Part shown: piece after piece, positions 14,530 through 47,634 of the stretch
How positions within the stretch are numbered: the stretch's first letter is position 1
Layout: each line of letters begins with the position of its first letter
From: Escherichia coli
GTDB taxonomy: Bacteria > Pseudomonadota > Gammaproteobacteria > Enterobacterales > Enterobacteriaceae
DNA length: 64,000 nt
Assembly (NCBI RefSeq): GCF_051903065.1
Contig: NZ_CP178438.1
Reading direction: 5' to 3' (one strand)
Position numbers and translations under genes: made by a program
The notes under the pieces: model-generated
What the model saw: only the letters and a program-made list of their open reading frames with translations
What the model was told of the DNA's origin: nothing
The model's database searches: none

Positions 14530-14594
14530 TAAATTGCCGGATGCGGCGCGAGTACTTTATCCGATCTATAAATGTAGGCCGGATAAGATGCGCC
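14530..14594. repeat. REP/BIME palindromic units downstream of ompG; the second unit is split by the IS at 14595 and resumes at 16028
   Basis: gccggatgcggcg… and gtaggccggataagatgcgcc | IS | gccagcatcgcatccggc; removing the IS and one GCC copy gives a palindrome gccggataagatgcgccagcatcgcatccggc. Confidence 0.75.
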
Positions 14595-15121
14595 TGAACT
14601 GCACCCCAAATGTTGGACATAATCTGACATCTGAAGGTGCAGTTTATGAAACATTCATTTGAAGTAAAACTTGCCGCTGTAAATCATTACCTGGCCGGTC
14701 ATGCAGGCATCATTTCTACGGCAAAACTCTTTCAACTTTCTCACACCAGCCTCTCACACTGGATTAATCTTTTTCTTCTTCACGGTCCTCAGGCACTGGA
14801 TTGCAGACACAAGCGTAGCTATTCTCCTGAAGATAAACTTTGCGTGGTTCTTTATGCTCTCGGGCATTCTGAGTCTCTACCCCGGGTAGCTGCCCGGTTT
14901 AACATTCCCAGCCACAACATGGTTAAAAACTGGATAAAAGGCTACCGCAAATCTGGTAATGAGGCCTTTATCAGGCGCAGGAAGGAGAAAAGCATGACCC
15001 GTTCTGATGATACCCATGAAAACGAGGCAAACATGACGCCGGAAGAGATGAAGAATGAGCTGCGTTATCTTCGCGCAGAAAATGCATATCTGAAAGCCAT
15101 GCAGGAGCATCTCCTGGAAAA

Positions 15122-16020
<899 letters not shown>

Positions 16021-16066
16021 TGTTCAGCCAGCATCGCATCCGGCATTCAGGCAAGGTCGCTGGTAT

Positions 16067-23827: not shown

Positions 23828-23991
23828 TATTGATGTGCAGATATTAGAATTGTCGTAATGTTATATACATGGCGTATTTTATTCTTACTGGTTCTACACA
23901 TGTTAATCGCATCTGATTGATCAGTTCACCTTAATAAGTTTAATAAATCGTACTGCACATAGTACAGTACGATGGTGGCTATATAATTGAT

Positions 23992-24642
23992 TTACATGAA
24001 GAATGGCTTATCGCCATCAGTCCCGGGTTGATTGATGCCTATATTCTCACCAATGTGTTTCTCAGGTTTATCGATGATATCTGTAATTAATGCTGCGACA
24101 CTCTTACGTGATACGATCGTACCTTTGAATGGTTCATTGCGTGAGGTAAGCTCATAATCAATAATATCTTCATCCGTCAGCCAGGCAGGGCGAAGAATTG
24201 TATAATCCAGTCCAGAAGCCTCAATTGCATCCGCAGCCCTGCGGAATGGTTTTAGGGGCTCACCAATAACTGCATTATTCCATTCGCCAAATTTTCCTGG
24301 AACTTCATCATAAATGCCGAGGGAAAGAACAAAGATCAGACGTTTAACATCACAGGCTTTCATCGCAGCGATCACTGAATTTGCCTGAATATCTAAATCT
24401 TCCCCCGTAAGGTTGGCATACACAATATCCTGTCCCTGCATGGCCTGCTTCAGTGCTGCATGATTCAGTACATCCCCCATAATAATCTGGCTATTAGTTG
24501 GATAGGGTTTGTGTATTTTTGCTGGCTGACGAGCAAATAAAGTTTGTTTAATGGTTTGTTTATCTGCCAGTTGATTAATCACATGGCGGGCTATCTGACC
24601 GCCAGCACCAAGAATGAGTACTTTTTTCATAATATTTCTCAT
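23992..24642 (-). CDS. NAD(P)-binding oxidoreductase (NmrA/atypical SDR-like, about 212-216 aa); appears intact here
   Basis: Rossmann motif VLILGAGGQIARHV near the N-terminus; open frame to stop. Confidence 0.7.
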   Translation of the reverse strand: MRNIMKKVLILGAGGQIARHVINQLADKQTIKQTLFARQPAKIHKPYPTNSQIIMGDVLNHAALKQAMQGQDIVYANLTGEDLDIQANSVIAAMKACDVKRLIFVLSLGIYDEVPGKFGEWNNAVIGEPLKPFRRAADAIEASGLDYTILRPAWLTDEDIIDYELTSRNEPFKGTIVSRKSVAALITDIIDKPEKHIGENIGINQPGTDGDKPFFM

Positions 24643-24647
24643 GAAAC

Positions 24648-25580
24648 TTATCCCAGATGGGTGTTGAAAAAAGGAATAACTTTTTCCAGCGCCTCCTGAA
24701 CTGCTTCCGGTTTGTCATACAGTTCATAATGTGAGAAATCGGGTAATGAAACTAACTGACGATCCTGCGAAACCATCGCCCGGCCATAGACTTCCAGTCC
24801 ATCACGATAAGCACCGAAGGCACCGACTTTTTCACCAACTACTACCATCACCGGCTGAGTCAGTAACACTTCAGTAAATGCGAAGGCATCCCAGGCCAGC
24901 GTTTTCTGTGCATGTGAGAACAACATTTTTGTCGCACCTCCCGGTTGTTGCCCGCGTGGTGTTTTATAGTAGTCAGTTGCTTCATAAACATCGCGTTCGG
25001 TCAGTCCATGGGCTTTTGCTGCATCCAGGCTGGCGGGAAGTAATTCGTTGATCTGTAATTCTCCACCACGAGCCTCTTTGGTTCGTTGCGACGCCATTGC
25101 ATTCAATGCGCCAATCGGATCGTAATTGCTGAAACCTTCCCGAAAAAGACGCCCGATATTAACACCCGTAATACTCACTACAGCTTTAATTCGTTTTTCT
25201 GTCAGCGCGGCATTAATGGCATAGCCCCTCCCCCCACACACACCCAGCACGCCAATGCGTTCAGCATCAACATATGGCAGAGTTACTGCATAATCGATAA
25301 CACGGCTAATATCCTCTACGCGCTGTGTCGGATCTTCTATCCAACGAGGCTCCCCACCAGATTCTCCCTGGAAATTGGCGTCATAAGCGAGAACGACATA
25401 GCCTTTTTCAGCCAATGCCTTGCCATAGATATTGCCAGACGTCTGCTCCTTACAACTGCCAAAAGGATGGACGCTGATAATCGCCGGATACTGTTTTGAC
25501 TCATCAAAATTTGGTGGAAACTGAATATTGGCAGCAATATGCCAGGCCATATCACTATTGCGGATTTGAATATGTTTCAT
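24648..25580 (-). CDS. Alpha/beta hydrolase, paralog of YcjY (310 aa)
   Basis: About half its residues are identical to the adjacent YcjY ORF by eye (shared YDAxxQGESGGEPR and IGxxGxCxGxGY blocks). Confidence 0.7.
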   Translation of the reverse strand: MKHIQIRNSDMAWHIAANIQFPPNFDESKQYPAIISVHPFGSCKEQTSGNIYGKALAEKGYVVLAYDANFQGESGGEPRWIEDPTQRVEDISRVIDYAVTLPYVDAERIGVLGVCGGRGYAINAALTEKRIKAVVSITGVNIGRLFREGFSNYDPIGALNAMASQRTKEARGGELQINELLPASLDAAKAHGLTERDVYEATDYYKTPRGQQPGGATKMLFSHAQKTLAWDAFAFTEVLLTQPVMVVVGEKVGAFGAYRDGLEVYGRAMVSQDRQLVSLPDFSHYELYDKPEAVQEALEKVIPFFNTHLG

Positions 25581-33168: not shown

Positions 33169-33684
33169 TTACAGCAAAAGATAACCTTCGTGGCGCAATA
33201 ACCACTCTTTTCGCTGAACTCCGCCTGCATATCCGGTCATGGTGCCGTTTCGGCCAATAACCCGATGGCAAGGTACGACGATGCTGATGGGATTCGATCC
33301 GTTTGCCGCACCAACGGCACGCGCCGCGCCAGGACGGCCCAATTGCTCAGCCAGTTCGCCGTAATGCATTACCTGCCCGCAGGGGATAGTGCGTAGTGTT
33401 TTCCAGACTTCGCGCTGAAATGGCGTCCCCCCCGTAGCAGTGGGAAGCGTATCAATAATGCTAAGATTACCGGCAAAATATTCACGAAGCTTGTCGCTTA
33501 AACCGCCTGGATTGGTGGCAGAAATGCGCTCATAGCCTTCTTTGCGATAATGGATGTCCAGCAGCTGCACCATGCGTTCGCTGTACTCTTCCCATTCAAC
33601 CGCCCGCAGGCGAAATTGCTCATCGCAAATCACCCACAGTGGACCCAGTGGCGTGGCAATTTTTTCTTCAAGTAATCTCAGCAT
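33169..33684 (-). CDS. ogt: O6-methylguanine-DNA methyltransferase (171 aa)
   Basis: Active-site motif VPCHRVIG and a protein I recognise as Ogt. Confidence 0.9.
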
Positions 33685-33694
33685 CCGTTCTCTC

Positions 33695-35221
33695 TTAAGA
33701 CAAACGTGGGTAAATACCCGGACCTATCGGCAGACCGACAAGATACCACGCCAGCAACATCAGCAGCCATACCACCAAAAAGATAAGTGGATAGGGCAAG
33801 ACTAACGAATAGTAAGTACCCAGTTTCGCGTCTGGTTTGTAGCGTTGCAGGAATCCAAGAAACAGTGGAACAAAAGGAGATACTGGCGCTAAAGGCAATA
33901 CGGATGAGTCGGCAATACGAAAGAGGATTTGCGCAAATGCCGGGTGAAAGCCAAGTAGCATAAACATTGGTACGAAAATGGGGGCCAGTATCGACCAGAT
34001 TGCGGAACCGCTGGCGATAAACATGCATAAGAAAGAGGAAAGCAACGCCAGACCGACAAACGCCGGGATGCCGCTAAGCCCTGAACTTTCCAGTATATCG
34101 GTCAGCCCCACGGCGATGAATTTCCCCATGTTGCTCCAGTTAAACATGGCGACAAATTGGGCGAGGGGAAAAACCATCACGATAAATCCCGCCATCTCTT
34201 TCATCGGTTCAATCATTAAATGCGGTAAATCCGCCTGACGTCGAATTGTGCGGGTAGCGATGCCATAAGCCAGCGAGACAACAAAGAAAAAAAGAATGAT
34301 CAGTGGCACGATACCTTTAATAAAGGGTGATGGCATCACGGTGTGATTAATCGGATCGCGTAATATCCCGTTTTCCGGGATCACCATCAGCGCAATCGCA
34401 GCAATAAAAAGTAGCGATACGACACCTGCTATGCGTAAACCAAAACGCTGACTTTCGGTCAATGTCTGCAGTTTCTCATCGCTGTTTCCCTGCCATTGAC
34501 CTAACCGTGGCTCGATGATTTTGTCGGTTATCAGGCCGCCAACAATCGTCAGTACGACTACGGAGCTGGCCATAAAATACCAGTTATCAATTACACTGAC
34601 GTGCATTTGCGGATTGAACGCAGCCGCCGCTTCCGTGCTGATCCCCGACAGCAACACGTCGGTTGTGACAATCAGTAAATTAGCCGTAAAGCCGCAACCT
34701 ACGCCTGCAATGGCAGCCAGTAAACCTGCAACTGGATGCCTGCCCACCGCCAGAAAAATCAGCGCACCCATCGGTGGCATGATCACTAACGCCGCATCGG
34801 AAGAAATGTGGCTGAAAAAAGCAATAAACAGCACCATATAACTGGCGTAGCGGGCATTAACATGCGATGCCATTTTAACCATTAGCGCTGGCAGTAAGCC
34901 GACGCGCTCCGCCAGACCGGCACCTAAAACCAGCGCCAGGATCGCACCAAGTGGAGCAAAACCGCTAAAGTTTTTAATAACATTGGGTAAAAACCAGTGT
35001 AATCCTTCAACACTGAGCAGGTTTTTCACCACCACCGGCGTACCATCGGTCGGGTTTTTCGCACTGACGCCAAAGGCCGACAAAATTGCCGTCGTCACCA
35101 TGAGTACGATAATCAAATAGATAAAGAGCAAAAAAGGATGGGGAACCTTGTTACCAATTCTTTCGACCCAGCCATAGAGCTTCCCGGATTGGGAGGACGA
35201 CGGTATGGATGACATACTCAT
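33695..35221 (-). CDS. abgT: p-Aminobenzoyl-glutamate transporter (AbgT family, about 508 aa)
   Basis: Large polytopic membrane protein; position upstream in the abgA/abgB operon on the minus strand. Confidence 0.85.
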
Positions 35222-35257
35222 GGGCATTCCTCGGTTGTTGTGTTTGCGTTGTTGTTG

Positions 35258-36692
35258 TTATTTTAAAGGTGACGGTGTCACGTTTTTCGGGATAGGGCAG
35301 TGGTACGGTTGCGTGTCCGTTACTTGCTGATGCTCTTGTTGGCATTCTTGCAATAGCCCTGAATCAAGGAAGAGATTGACTGTGGTTGCTGCCATAGTTT
35401 TCGCCGCCAGCAGCATTCCTTTATGAGCAATAGATGTTCGCCCCTGGCTAACCAGTTGCCACGTATGTAGGGGTGTACCGACGGCAAAACAGGGGCTGAA
35501 ACACTGGGCAACAGGCAGTTTCCAACTGACGTCGCCGACATCAGTCGATGCCGCAAGCACGTTATCGGTGGCGGCATATGGAGCGACTTCATTCGCCAGT
35601 ACCGTTTCACGATGACGTAGTGCAAAAACCTTGCCGTTTTCGCCACCGGTTGCGGCGATATTATTCAGACTGTTTTGCCGATCGTTGGAGGTGAGCGTAG
35701 CCTGAATTTGTTTCGCAAAAGCCAGTTCTTCGGAGTTCCATTCCGGGGTACCAAAATGGGATAGGGCCTGGTACATGGCATTTTCTAAGGTGCGATTCGG
35801 GAGATAACTGGAACAGGCTTTGTCGAAGCGGCATTCAACCTTGGTTTCGGTCATCAATGCCGCACCTTCGGCGATTTTGGCGACCCGATCATAAATATGC
35901 TGCACGTCGGTCATTTCGGGGGCGCGGATAAGATAAAGCACTTCTGCCTGCGCCTGGACCACGTTGGGCGAGATCCCGCCGCTATTTGTGATGGCATAGT
36001 GTACGCGCGCTTTTTCAATAATATGTTCGTTGAGGAAGTTGGTGCCAGTGGTCATCAACGTTACGGCATCAAGGGCGCTGCGTCCCAAATGAGGGGAATT
36101 CGCGGCATGTGCTGCGATCCCTTTAAAGCGCCATGATGCCTGAATGTTTGCCAGCGTGCGGGTATTGAACATACCGGCAAAGGCTTCCGGGTGCCAGGTG
36201 AGTGCCGCATCCACATCATCAAATACCCCCTCGCGAACCATGAACGTTTTACCCGAGCCGCCTTCTTCGCCAGGACAACCATAAAAGCGCACCGTGCCGC
36301 CTTGCCCATATTGTTCCAGCCATTTCTTGACGGCTATTGCAGCGGCAAAGGCGGCGGTTCCCAGCAAATTGTGTCCGCAACCGTGACCATTTTCACCGGG
36401 CGTCACGGATGTAGGTTGCGCGCAACCTGCTTGCTGACTTAAACCTGCCAGGGCGTCATATTCTCCCAGCAGGGCGATAACCGGTTTGCCTTGACCAAAC
36501 GAAGCAATAAAGGCATTTGGGATATTGCCTACGGGTGAAGCCTGCAGATTCCAGCGCCGAAGCCAGATGCTCCGCTGACCAGAACTCTTCAAAACGTGTT
36601 TCTGGATGATCCCAGATTTGATCGGCAATATCGGTATAACGTTGGCGATCGGCTTCAATCGCATCGTCGATAAAACGATAGATTTCCTGCAT
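35258..36692 (-). pseudogene. abgB: p-Aminobenzoyl-glutamate hydrolase subunit B (M20 peptidase), frameshifted near 36533
   Basis: N-terminal 78-aa ORF (36456..36692, MQEIYRFIDDAIEADRQRYTDIADQIWDHPETRFEEFWSAEHLASALESAGFT…) switches frame into the 468-aa ORF (35258..36664, …VGNIPNAFIASFGQGKPVIALLGEYD…). Confidence 0.75.
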
Positions 36693-38002
36693 CAGATACC
36701 TCGCGTCCAGGGAAAATTGAGCGCGGTGCGCGCCAGCGTTTCGACGGCAATAGCGAGAACCTGCTCGTCAAAATCGAATTTTTCGTTGTGATGACCTGCC
36801 GCCAGCTGTGTGCCAAACACCACGTAGGAGGCTTGCCCTTGATGTTGCTGCACGCGGGCCATCATTAATGTGGCATCTTCGGAACCCGCAGGCGCTTCAA
36901 CACGTTCAATGGCCTGATTAACCCCCGCTACCTGAGCCGCCTGACTTTGCAACCATGCGACCCATTGCGGCGAAGGAGAACTGGCGGTAGCTGCACCCAT
37001 CAGACGAGTTTCAACGCCGACACCATACATGGTTGCTGCGCCCTGAATCGCTTGTTGTGCACGGTCAAAAACATATTGATTAATGACGTCGCTGGCCCCG
37101 CGTGTTTCCACTTTCAGCAACGCCGAGGCAGGAACAACATTACGACCGCTTCCTGCCTGCATAACGCCCACGTTTACTCTGGAAGCGCCTTCGCTGTGCG
37201 GGGCGATTGCATGTAGAGCAAGAGTTGCTTGTGCTGCCGCCAACAAGGCATTGTGACCGTCTTCTGGTTTTGCGCCTGCGTGAGCGGCGGTCCCGGTGAA
37301 GTGCGCGTCAAATTTGGTGGTTGCCATAAAATTATCACTGCCGCACACCACGGTGCCCGCAGGTACGCCAGTGCCAATGTGCACGGCAGTAAAATAATCA
37401 ACATCATCTACGACACCTGCATCGACCATCGCCCGCGCGCCACGCGTACCTTCTTCTGCAGGTTGAAAAATCAGTTTGATGATGCCATGTAGTCCGGACT
37501 CGAACTGTTTAAGGGTATGCGCCAGCCCAAGCCCAATGGCGGTATGCCCATCATGACCACAGGCATGCATCATTCCGGCGTTACATGACGCAAAACCGTC
37601 GCGGTAGGGGCGATGGCTGACATCCTGCTCTTCACTGAGATCCAGCGCGTCCATATCGACACGGAAAGCCATCACCGGACCGGGGCGACCGGTATCCAGG
37701 GTGGCGACGATACCCGTGAAACCACCTTCAAAAGCCGCAATCCATTGTGCTAGCGCACCCTGTTGACGAGCGCGCTCGAATTCGCGTTGTAGAGTGAGTT
37801 CATCAGGTAGTCCCATCCGACTACTTTCATTAACTACTTCGCGGCCCAGCGCCAGTGAATAGCCGAGCTGCTGCAATTCTTCCGCAACAAGGGTGGCAGT
37901 GCGGAATTCCACCCAGCCAGACTCTGCATAGTGATGAAAATCACGTCGCCAGTGCGATAATTTTGGGGCAAGCGAATTAACAAATTGATTCAAAGACTCC
38001 AT
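36692..38002 (-). CDS. abgA: p-Aminobenzoyl-glutamate hydrolase subunit A (M20 peptidase, 436 aa)
   Basis: Met giving MESLNQFVNSLAPKLSHWRRDFHHYAESGW…; M20 family. Confidence 0.85.
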   Translation of the reverse strand: MESLNQFVNSLAPKLSHWRRDFHHYAESGWVEFRTATLVAEELQQLGYSLALGREVVNESSRMGLPDELTLQREFERARQQGALAQWIAAFEGGFTGIVATLDTGRPGPVMAFRVDMDALDLSEEQDVSHRPYRDGFASCNAGMMHACGHDGHTAIGLGLAHTLKQFESGLHGIIKLIFQPAEEGTRGARAMVDAGVVDDVDYFTAVHIGTGVPAGTVVCGSDNFMATTKFDAHFTGTAAHAGAKPEDGHNALLAAAQATLALHAIAPHSEGASRVNVGVMQAGSGRNVVPASALLKVETRGASDVINQYVFDRAQQAIQGAATMYGVGVETRLMGAATASSPSPQWVAWLQSQAAQVAGVNQAIERVEAPAGSEDATLMMARVQQHQGQASYVVFGTQLAAGHHNEKFDFDEQVLAIAVETLARTALNFPWTRGI

Positions 38003-38177: not shown

Positions 38178-39086
38178 ATGGCTTTTCAGGTAAAAATTCA
38201 TCAAATTCGGGCTTTTGTTGAAGTGGCTCGTCAGGGCAGCATTCGCGGAGCGAGCCGAATGTTGAATATGTCGCAACCGGCACTGAGTAAATCTATTCAG
38301 GAGCTGGAAGAAGGGTTAGCGGCGCAACTCTTTTTTCGCCGTAGTAAAGGTGTGACGTTAACTGATGCCGGTGAAAGTTTTTATCAGCACGCCAGTCTTA
38401 TTCTTGAAGAGCTGCGCGCAGCCCAAGAGGATATTCGCCAACGACAAGGGCAACTGGCAGGGCAGATTAATATCGGCATGGGGGCCAGTATTTCCCGCAG
38501 TCTGATGCCAGCTGTCATATCTCGTTTTCATCAGCAGCATCCGCAGGTAAAAGTACGCATTATGGAAGGGCAACTGGTGTCGATGATTAATGAATTGCGT
38601 CAGGGAGAATTGGATTTCACCATCAATACCTATTATCAGGGACCGTACGACCACGAATTTACTTTTGAGAAATTACTGGAAAAGCAATTCGCGATCTTTT
38701 GCCGCCCGGGACACCCCGCCATTGGTGCCCGTTCGATCAAACAGTTACTGGATTACAGCTGGACAATGCCGACGCCACACGGCAGCTACTACAAACAGTT
38801 GAGTGAATTGCTTGACGATCAGGCGCAAACGCCACAGGTCGGTGTAGTCTGCGAGACGTTCTCAGCCTGTATCAGTCTGGTGGCAAAAAGCGATTTTCTC
38901 AGCATACTGCCTGAAGAAATGGGCTGCGATCCCTTGCACGGACAGGGGCTGGTGATGTTGCCGGTTAGCGAAATTTTACCGAAAGCGGCCTATTATTTGA
39001 TTCAGCGGCGTGATAGTCGCCAGACACCACTGACCGCGTCATTAATCACGCAATTCCGGCGAGAATGCGGCTATCTGCAAAGTTAA
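38178..39086 (+). CDS. abgR: LysR-family regulator AbgR (302 aa)
   Basis: LysR HTH at N-terminus; divergent from abgA. Confidence 0.85.
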   Translation: MAFQVKIHQIRAFVEVARQGSIRGASRMLNMSQPALSKSIQELEEGLAAQLFFRRSKGVTLTDAGESFYQHASLILEELRAAQEDIRQRQGQLAGQINIGMGASISRSLMPAVISRFHQQHPQVKVRIMEGQLVSMINELRQGELDFTINTYYQGPYDHEFTFEKLLEKQFAIFCRPGHPAIGARSIKQLLDYSWTMPTPHGSYYKQLSELLDDQAQTPQVGVVCETFSACISLVAKSDFLSILPEEMGCDPLHGQGLVMLPVSEILPKAAYYLIQRRDSRQTPLTASLITQFRRECGYLQS

Positions 39087-39094
39087 AACTGCAT

Positions 39095-39188
39095 AAAAAA
39101 ATAGAGTCTGTCGACATCCGCCAGACTCTACAGTACACACAGCAGTGCATCCGCGTCTTAAATCCGGCATTGTCTCCTCTGCGCCGGT
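39095..39188 (-). ncRNA. mcaS: sRNA McaS (IsrA)
   Basis: Minus-strand sequence ACCGGCGCAGAGGAGACAATGCCGGATTTAAGACGCGGATGCACTGCTGTGTGTACTGTAGAGTCTGGCGGATGTCGACAGACTCTATTTTTTT matches my memory of McaS; terminal hairpin plus T-run on the minus strand. Confidence 0.75.
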
Positions 39189-42565: not shown

Positions 42566-42687
42566 GCAGGTGAATGCAACGTCAAGCGATGGGCGTTGCG
42601 CTCCATATTGTCTTACTTCCTTTTTTGAATTACTGCATAGCACAATTGATTCGTACGACGCCGACTTTGATGAGTCGGCTTTTTTTT
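42566..42687 (+). ncRNA. fnrS: sRNA FnrS
   Basis: GCAGGTGAATGCAACGTCAAGCGATGGGCGTTGCGCTCCATATTGTCTTACTTCC… ending in hairpin gccgactttgatgagtcggc plus T7; matches my memory of FnrS and its location between zntB and dbpA. Confidence 0.8.
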
Positions 42688-47269: not shown

Positions 47270-47496
47270 TGAATAAATCCTTTAGTTATTTTATTTGCCT
47301 TTTATCCCCATTTCGGGGAGTGAAAACATCCTAAAGGAGAAGTTCAGTTAGCCGATAAATATCATTTGTTACGCCTTAAGTAAAACCTTAATCAAATAAT
47401 TCCTCTGAAATGATAATAAGTCTGGTGAATGTATCGAAGATAATACATACAAAATAAAAATTATACTTTTAATTTTCTATACGTTATTCTGCGCGG

Positions 47497-47608
47497 GTTA
47501 TATGCCTTTATTGTCACAGATTTTATTTTTTGTTGGGCCATTGCATTGCCACTGATTTTCCAACATATAAAAAGACAAGCCCGAACAGTCGTCCGGGCTT
47601 TTTTTTAG
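47497..47608 (+). ncRNA. micC: sRNA MicC
   Basis: GTTATATGCCTTTATTGTCACAGATTTTATTTT… ending in hairpin gcccgaacagtcgtccgggc plus T8; matches my memory of MicC, which lies between ompN and ydbK. Confidence 0.8.
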
Positions 47609-47634
47609 AATTGGATAATCCTTATCCAGAGCAT

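Follow-up and report, generated by a model that had tools for sequence, protein, structure and literature searches.

In the 64,000-nt stretch of Escherichia coli DNA that we analysed (hereafter the window), abgB has lost 11 bp within codons 54-57. We put the probability at roughly 90% that the locus is a recent, clone-private frameshift pseudogene that arose by this single deletion. Judged from the reading frames and the available translation starts, a functional AbgB is not expected in this clone. Mechanistically, nothing here is new: the gene is the well-characterised abgB of the abgABT operon, the lesion is an ordinary frameshift deletion, and the allele is already present in a public assembly.

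An 11-bp deletion divides abgB between two reading frames

The window is colinear with 1,368-1,410 kb of the K-12 chromosome at 97-99% identity, and the locus and gene order (abgR / abgA-abgB-abgT-ogt) are the same as those around K-12 abgB (b1337), which encodes subunit B of p-aminobenzoyl-glutamate hydrolase, a member of peptidase family M20. Aligned to the 1,446-bp K-12 gene (NC_000913 1401810-1403255), the 1,435-bp window copy differs by a single 11-base gap and 3 substitutions, which corresponds to 99.8% nucleotide identity outside the gap. Aligned to abgB of strain ECNB21-M121, it is identical except for the same 11-bp gap. The gap can be placed in only one way, cleanly between 36533 and 36534 on the plus strand. 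On the coding strand it removes GTTACCCGCAA, which is nt 160-170 of K-12 abgB and comprises codons V54, T55 and R56 and 2 nt of N57. No compensating indel was found: the rest of abgB and the 12.7 kb around it align without a further gap. The preliminary description had placed a frameshift near 36533 and estimated that about 11 bp were missing, by comparison with an intact sequence given as ...AGFTVTRNVGNIP...; that sequence agrees with K-12 AbgB, and both the position and the size of the lesion are borne out. It had also proposed aligning the region with abgB of K-12 and other strains, which defined the indel exactly and produced no continuous single-frame translation.

On the minus strand of window positions 35100-36900, the AbgB N-terminus can be read as far as ...ALESAGFT, after which the sequence runs on as CGT AGG CAA TAT CCC.... 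The abgB start is translationally coupled to abgA, whose stop codon overlaps it in the sequence TGATG. The open reading frame from this start, MQEIY...SAGFT followed by RRQYPKCLYCFVWSRQTGYRPAGRI and a stop, consists of 53 native and 25 nonsense residues; the frame breaks after codon 53 and ends at codon 79, with TGA at 36456-36458. Residues 58-481 of AbgB continue in another frame than residues 1-53, within a 468-aa open reading frame (35258..36664, minus strand) that opens with 44 residues read out of frame from the abgB 5′ end and is native AbgB from VGNIPNAFIASFGQGKP on, through the normal stop. Relative to intact orthologues, the indel is therefore not a multiple of three and is uncompensated, and the premature stop removes the catalytic domains. 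No uninterrupted frame of ~481 codons runs from the abgA-coupled ATG, in a genomic context (abgR / abgA-abgB-abgT) that is otherwise the one expected of a functional abgB. The coordinates of the locus and its neighbors are listed in Table 1.

Table 1. Features of the abg locus, in window coordinates.
Feature	Position	Strand	Evidence and remarks
abgB pseudogene, whole former coding region	35258..36692	-	1,435 bp (intact gene, 1,446 bp); alignments to K-12 and ECNB21-M121
Deletion junction, 11 bp gone	36533..36534	-	Alignments; no microhomology
Truncated product from the native ATG, 78 aa	36456..36692	-	ORF list; no Pfam domain
Orphaned native-frame part, residues 58-481, Peptidase_M20 and M20_dimer	35258..36533	-	Open upstream to ATG 36664, which lacks a Shine-Dalgarno sequence
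abgA, 436 aa + stop, hydrolase partner subunit	36692..38002	-	No internal stop; protein identical to ECNB21-M121 AbgA; 3 substitutions vs K-12
abgT, 508 aa + stop, p-aminobenzoyl-glutamate transporter	33695..35221	-	No internal stop; protein identical to ECNB21-M121
abgR, intact divergent LysR-type regulator	38178..39086	+	No internal stop; identical to ECNB21-M121 AbgR
ogt	33169-33684		Open; one residue differs from K-12 Ogt

Predicted effect on AbgB and on the hydrolase

In intact AbgB, Pfam assigns residues 78-308 to Peptidase_M20 (PF01546) and residues 191-280 to M20_dimer (PF07687), both wholly downstream of the lesion. The downstream-frame ORF retains PF01546 with the inserted PF07687 above the Pfam cut-off, with scores equal to those of intact AbgB from ECNB21-M121, and no Pfam domain was found in the 78-aa peptide. 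AbgB residues 8-57 give a good alignment with HmrA (3ram), a homologue of solved structure, over its residues 7-56, HPE motif included, which makes this segment conserved core rather than a dispensable leader. In the window, this N-terminal core (~8-57) is not joined to the catalytic domain, as the two lie in different frames.

We also looked for starts from which the native downstream frame might be translated. The first candidates are ATG 36664 and three TTG codons. None of these is preceded by a Shine-Dalgarno-like sequence, and no start with such a sequence occurs before the HGCGH metal-binding region; the first one in the native frame is a GTG at 36292, beyond that region. Ribosomes initiating at the native ATG, coupled to the abgA stop, would thus be predicted to leave the native frame after 53 residues and to add 25 nonsense residues before the TGA at 36456-36458, leaving the M20 catalytic and dimerisation domains (residues 58-481) untranslated.

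p-Aminobenzoyl-glutamate hydrolase (PGH) recycles a folate breakdown product. PMC5082436 (citing Carter 2007 and Green 2010) describes it as a heterotetramer of AbgA and AbgB with a requirement for Mn2+, a property known for K-12, and names AbgT as the protein that imports p-aminobenzoyl-glutamate. Because the enzyme is a heterotetramer of both subunits, hydrolase activity is likely lost without AbgB, by analogy to the K-12 enzyme: the AbgA2AbgB2 hydrolase could not form, and p-aminobenzoate would not be released from imported p-aminobenzoyl-glutamate. The earlier suggestion that the hydrolase is inactive is supported in this respect, with 53 of 481 residues in frame and no plausible restart. 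The appropriate annotation is that of an abgB pseudogene with a frameshift, and p-aminobenzoyl-glutamate hydrolase should be left out of metabolic models of the strain.

abgA and abgT, which the preliminary description had called intact, are so by sequence (Table 1). Its further claim that the transporter is retained holds for the abgT gene sequence; expression of abgT may nevertheless drop via polarity. Between the premature stop and the abgT ATG lie 1,234 nt of now untranslated mRNA, with several C-rich, G-poor stretches. A consensus scan of the abgA-abgT interval for an independent abgT promoter came up empty on the coding (-) strand, and the matches overall did not rise above chance. Given this untranslated interval and the lack of a promoter-like site in it, Rho-dependent polarity that lowers abgT expression is plausible.

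The deletion is absent from other complete genomes

We ran a 301-bp query across the deletion site against 5,426 complete E. coli genomes. The query matched 4,199 of them, each match spanning 312 subject bases; a gapless match to the 301-bp junction was found in 0/4,199, as was any length change at the site. Chance plays no part in the observed deletion, since all 4,199 genomes carry the extra 11 bases. The junction between GGCTTCACC and CGTAGGCAAT, absent from these 4,199 other complete genomes, is therefore a handy clone-specific marker. The remaining 1,227 of the 5,426 genomes (23%) do not have the queried abgB stretch, which makes the function dispensable in E. coli, and the deletion is one more example of the abg operon being dispensable in this species. 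Other truncated AbgB forms in public data, such as the 344-aa protein of KTE154 (ELG95301.1), are grouped in one 90%-identity cluster. Their lengths differ and they hence represent different lesions, many being merely cut by contig ends; with that proviso, the truncated forms in the cluster indicate that lesions in abgB are not rare.

The nearest complete genomes are ECNB21-M121 (NZ_CP083585.1, WP_001156443.1), 23CRST027 and 23CRST031, all with an intact abgB. Over 38.9 kb, the window differs from ECNB21-M121 by 10 substitutions, one 1-bp indel and the abgB deletion, which is the only multi-base indel. With so few differences, the deletion is very recent, and it is private to the clone. The abg region of ECNB21-M121 is the same as that of the window outside the gap, and this strain does not have the IS1 copy of the window at 60739-61506. 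A Shigella origin of the window, initially suggested because no exact match turned up in E. coli, was rejected in view of this near-identity to ECNB21-M121 and of the match to an E. coli draft assembly (GCA_036912935.1) described below.

Two insertion sequences distinguish this lineage. A copy of IS1397, of the IS3 family, lies at ~14594-16026 between ompG and ycjW and is absent from K-12. Among complete genomes, an IS1397 at the ompG-ycjW site is common only to the three relatives named above, making it a good lineage marker. The 768-bp IS1, flanked by a 9-bp target duplication (60730-60738 and 61507-61515), sits inside a large autotransporter gene that measures 5.9 kb in ECNB21-M121, and is a second clone-private gene disruption in the window.

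A public draft assembly carries the same allele

The N-terminus of the 468-aa ORF exists only with the deletion, making this ORF diagnostic. An exact look-up in a collection of 15 billion proteins (NCBI and Logan) placed it on 3 public contigs, which are perhaps not biologically independent, as a single isolate, or even a single read set, may underlie them. One of the three is JATALX010000030.1 (44,944 bp) of the draft assembly GCA_036912935.1. Over the 21.4 kb compared, this contig is 100% identical to window positions 25258-46664, deletion included. By coordinate conversion, it corresponds to window positions ~15905-60848 and ends ~120 nt inside IS1397 and ~110 nt inside IS1, so that this fragmented 44.9-kb contig stops within both IS copies that the window spans. 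Such ends are what short-read assembly produces from a genome bearing both of these IS insertions, and the contig and the window most likely represent the same clone. The window comes from a different assembly than the contig, because it spans both IS copies.

Origin of the deletion

No microhomology was found at the junction, and several routes to the deletion were considered and set aside. In the ancestral sequence, most of the deleted segment is enclosed by a 4-bp stem (CGTT/AACG), which might point to hairpin-mediated deletion, but the DNA folds around the segment are no more stable than those of shuffled sequence on either strand (z = +1.22 and +0.48). Slippage between two CGT direct repeats predicts a loss of 12 bp, not 11. 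Two successive slippages, of 6 bp (ACC...ACC) and then 5 bp (CG...CG), would give the same final sequence, but synthetic queries carrying either the 6-bp or the 5-bp deletion had no exact match in any of the 4,199 genomes. We prefer a single 11-bp event, as neither intermediate allele was found there. Neutral decay would be the presumed cause.

Alternative explanations

A sequencing or assembly error over an intact gene would, like the allele seen here, be missing from all 4,199 other complete genomes, and an error common to the underlying reads would also recur as the same deletion in every assembly made from them. Against this, the missing 11 bp lie in neither a homopolymer nor a repeat, the deletion stands alone as a multi-base indel in the comparison to ECNB21-M121, and the same lesion is present in the separately assembled draft contig and in Logan contigs, so that at least two assemblies agree. 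Because of this agreement, the nature of the site and the otherwise clean window, we consider an artefact very unlikely; the concern about a homopolymer or assembly error raised in the preliminary description is largely answered by the same observations. If the deletion is real, an AbgB with a short altered segment might still be made in one of two ways: ribosomes could slip by +1 while reading the 25 out-of-frame codons, for example at CCC-A or where CGT precedes the rare codon AGG, or they could initiate at ATG 36664. The frame needed is indeed +1. The out-of-frame tail contains rare codons (AGG twice, AGA and ATA), and its CCC-A, which follows the junction by five codons, could let tRNA-Pro re-pair on CCA. 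In the native downstream frame, no stop intervenes as far back as ATG 36664. We nonetheless find such a rescue highly improbable: the two-frame layout is not conserved (0/4,199 genomes), ATG 36664 and the other starts ahead of the metal-binding region all lack a Shine-Dalgarno sequence, and no stimulatory element could be recognised. The product from ATG 36664 would moreover exchange 57 conserved core residues for 44 unrelated ones, and the slip product would still be 4 residues short. Programmed ribosomal frameshifting was rejected, as all 4,199 other genomes have a single-frame, full-length site and no conserved slippery or stimulatory arrangement is present; background slippage could yield traces of AbgB at most.

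The frameshift pseudogene could also reflect selection rather than neutral loss, for example if p-aminobenzoyl-glutamate cleavage were stopped while AbgT transport was kept. abgA, abgT and abgR are untouched, and the variable presence of the operon in E. coli, together with the many other truncated AbgB forms, suggests that the locus turns over often. The event is, however, a single one, confined to one clone and neither repeated nor paralleled at the site; the private IS1 insertion in another gene of the same clone fits ordinary mutational decay, and the tendency of polarity would be to reduce abgT expression rather than to maintain it. Selected loss of AbgB is thus improbable in our view. 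A more elaborate version, an adaptive uncoupling in which AbgT and AbgA are kept and hydrolysis is lost by selection, possibly with trace AbgB from +1 slippage at the rare-codon-rich stretch, strikes us as far-fetched; if it were true, the benefit could be altered folate-catabolite salvage or antifolate handling. A neutral 11-bp deletion in a dispensable gene remains our preferred reading of the locus.

Other features of the window

At position 25229, the window reads CCCCTCCCCCC and ECNB21-M121 reads CCCCCCCCCC, one base shorter. The alpha/beta-hydrolase gene at this position is annotated as frameshifted in ECNB21-M121, whereas a 310-aa product is annotated in the draft assembly that represents the clone of the window. 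Probably it is the window that has the intact copy, and ECNB21-M121 may owe its frameshift to a homopolymer error. Positions 23831-25523 have no alignment with K-12 (ymjC/ymjD/ycjY area) and are near-identical to ECNB21-M121; by synteny with that strain, they should carry a second alpha/beta hydrolase gene and an SDR oxidoreductase gene.

Compared to K-12, the window has no IS5 between ynaI and ynaJ (~30690). At ~44.8-46.2 kb (ttcA to uspF), the window is colinear with ECNB21-M121, a strain in which no Rac prophage separates these two genes. The autotransporter gene contains, at 57283-57642, an internal array of imperfect tandem repeats with a ~30-bp period, whose offset self-matches reach 89-92% identity. 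The sRNAs McaS (39093-39188, minus strand), FnrS (42566-42683, plus strand) and MicC (47494-47614, plus strand) are all full length and score well above the Rfam gathering thresholds.
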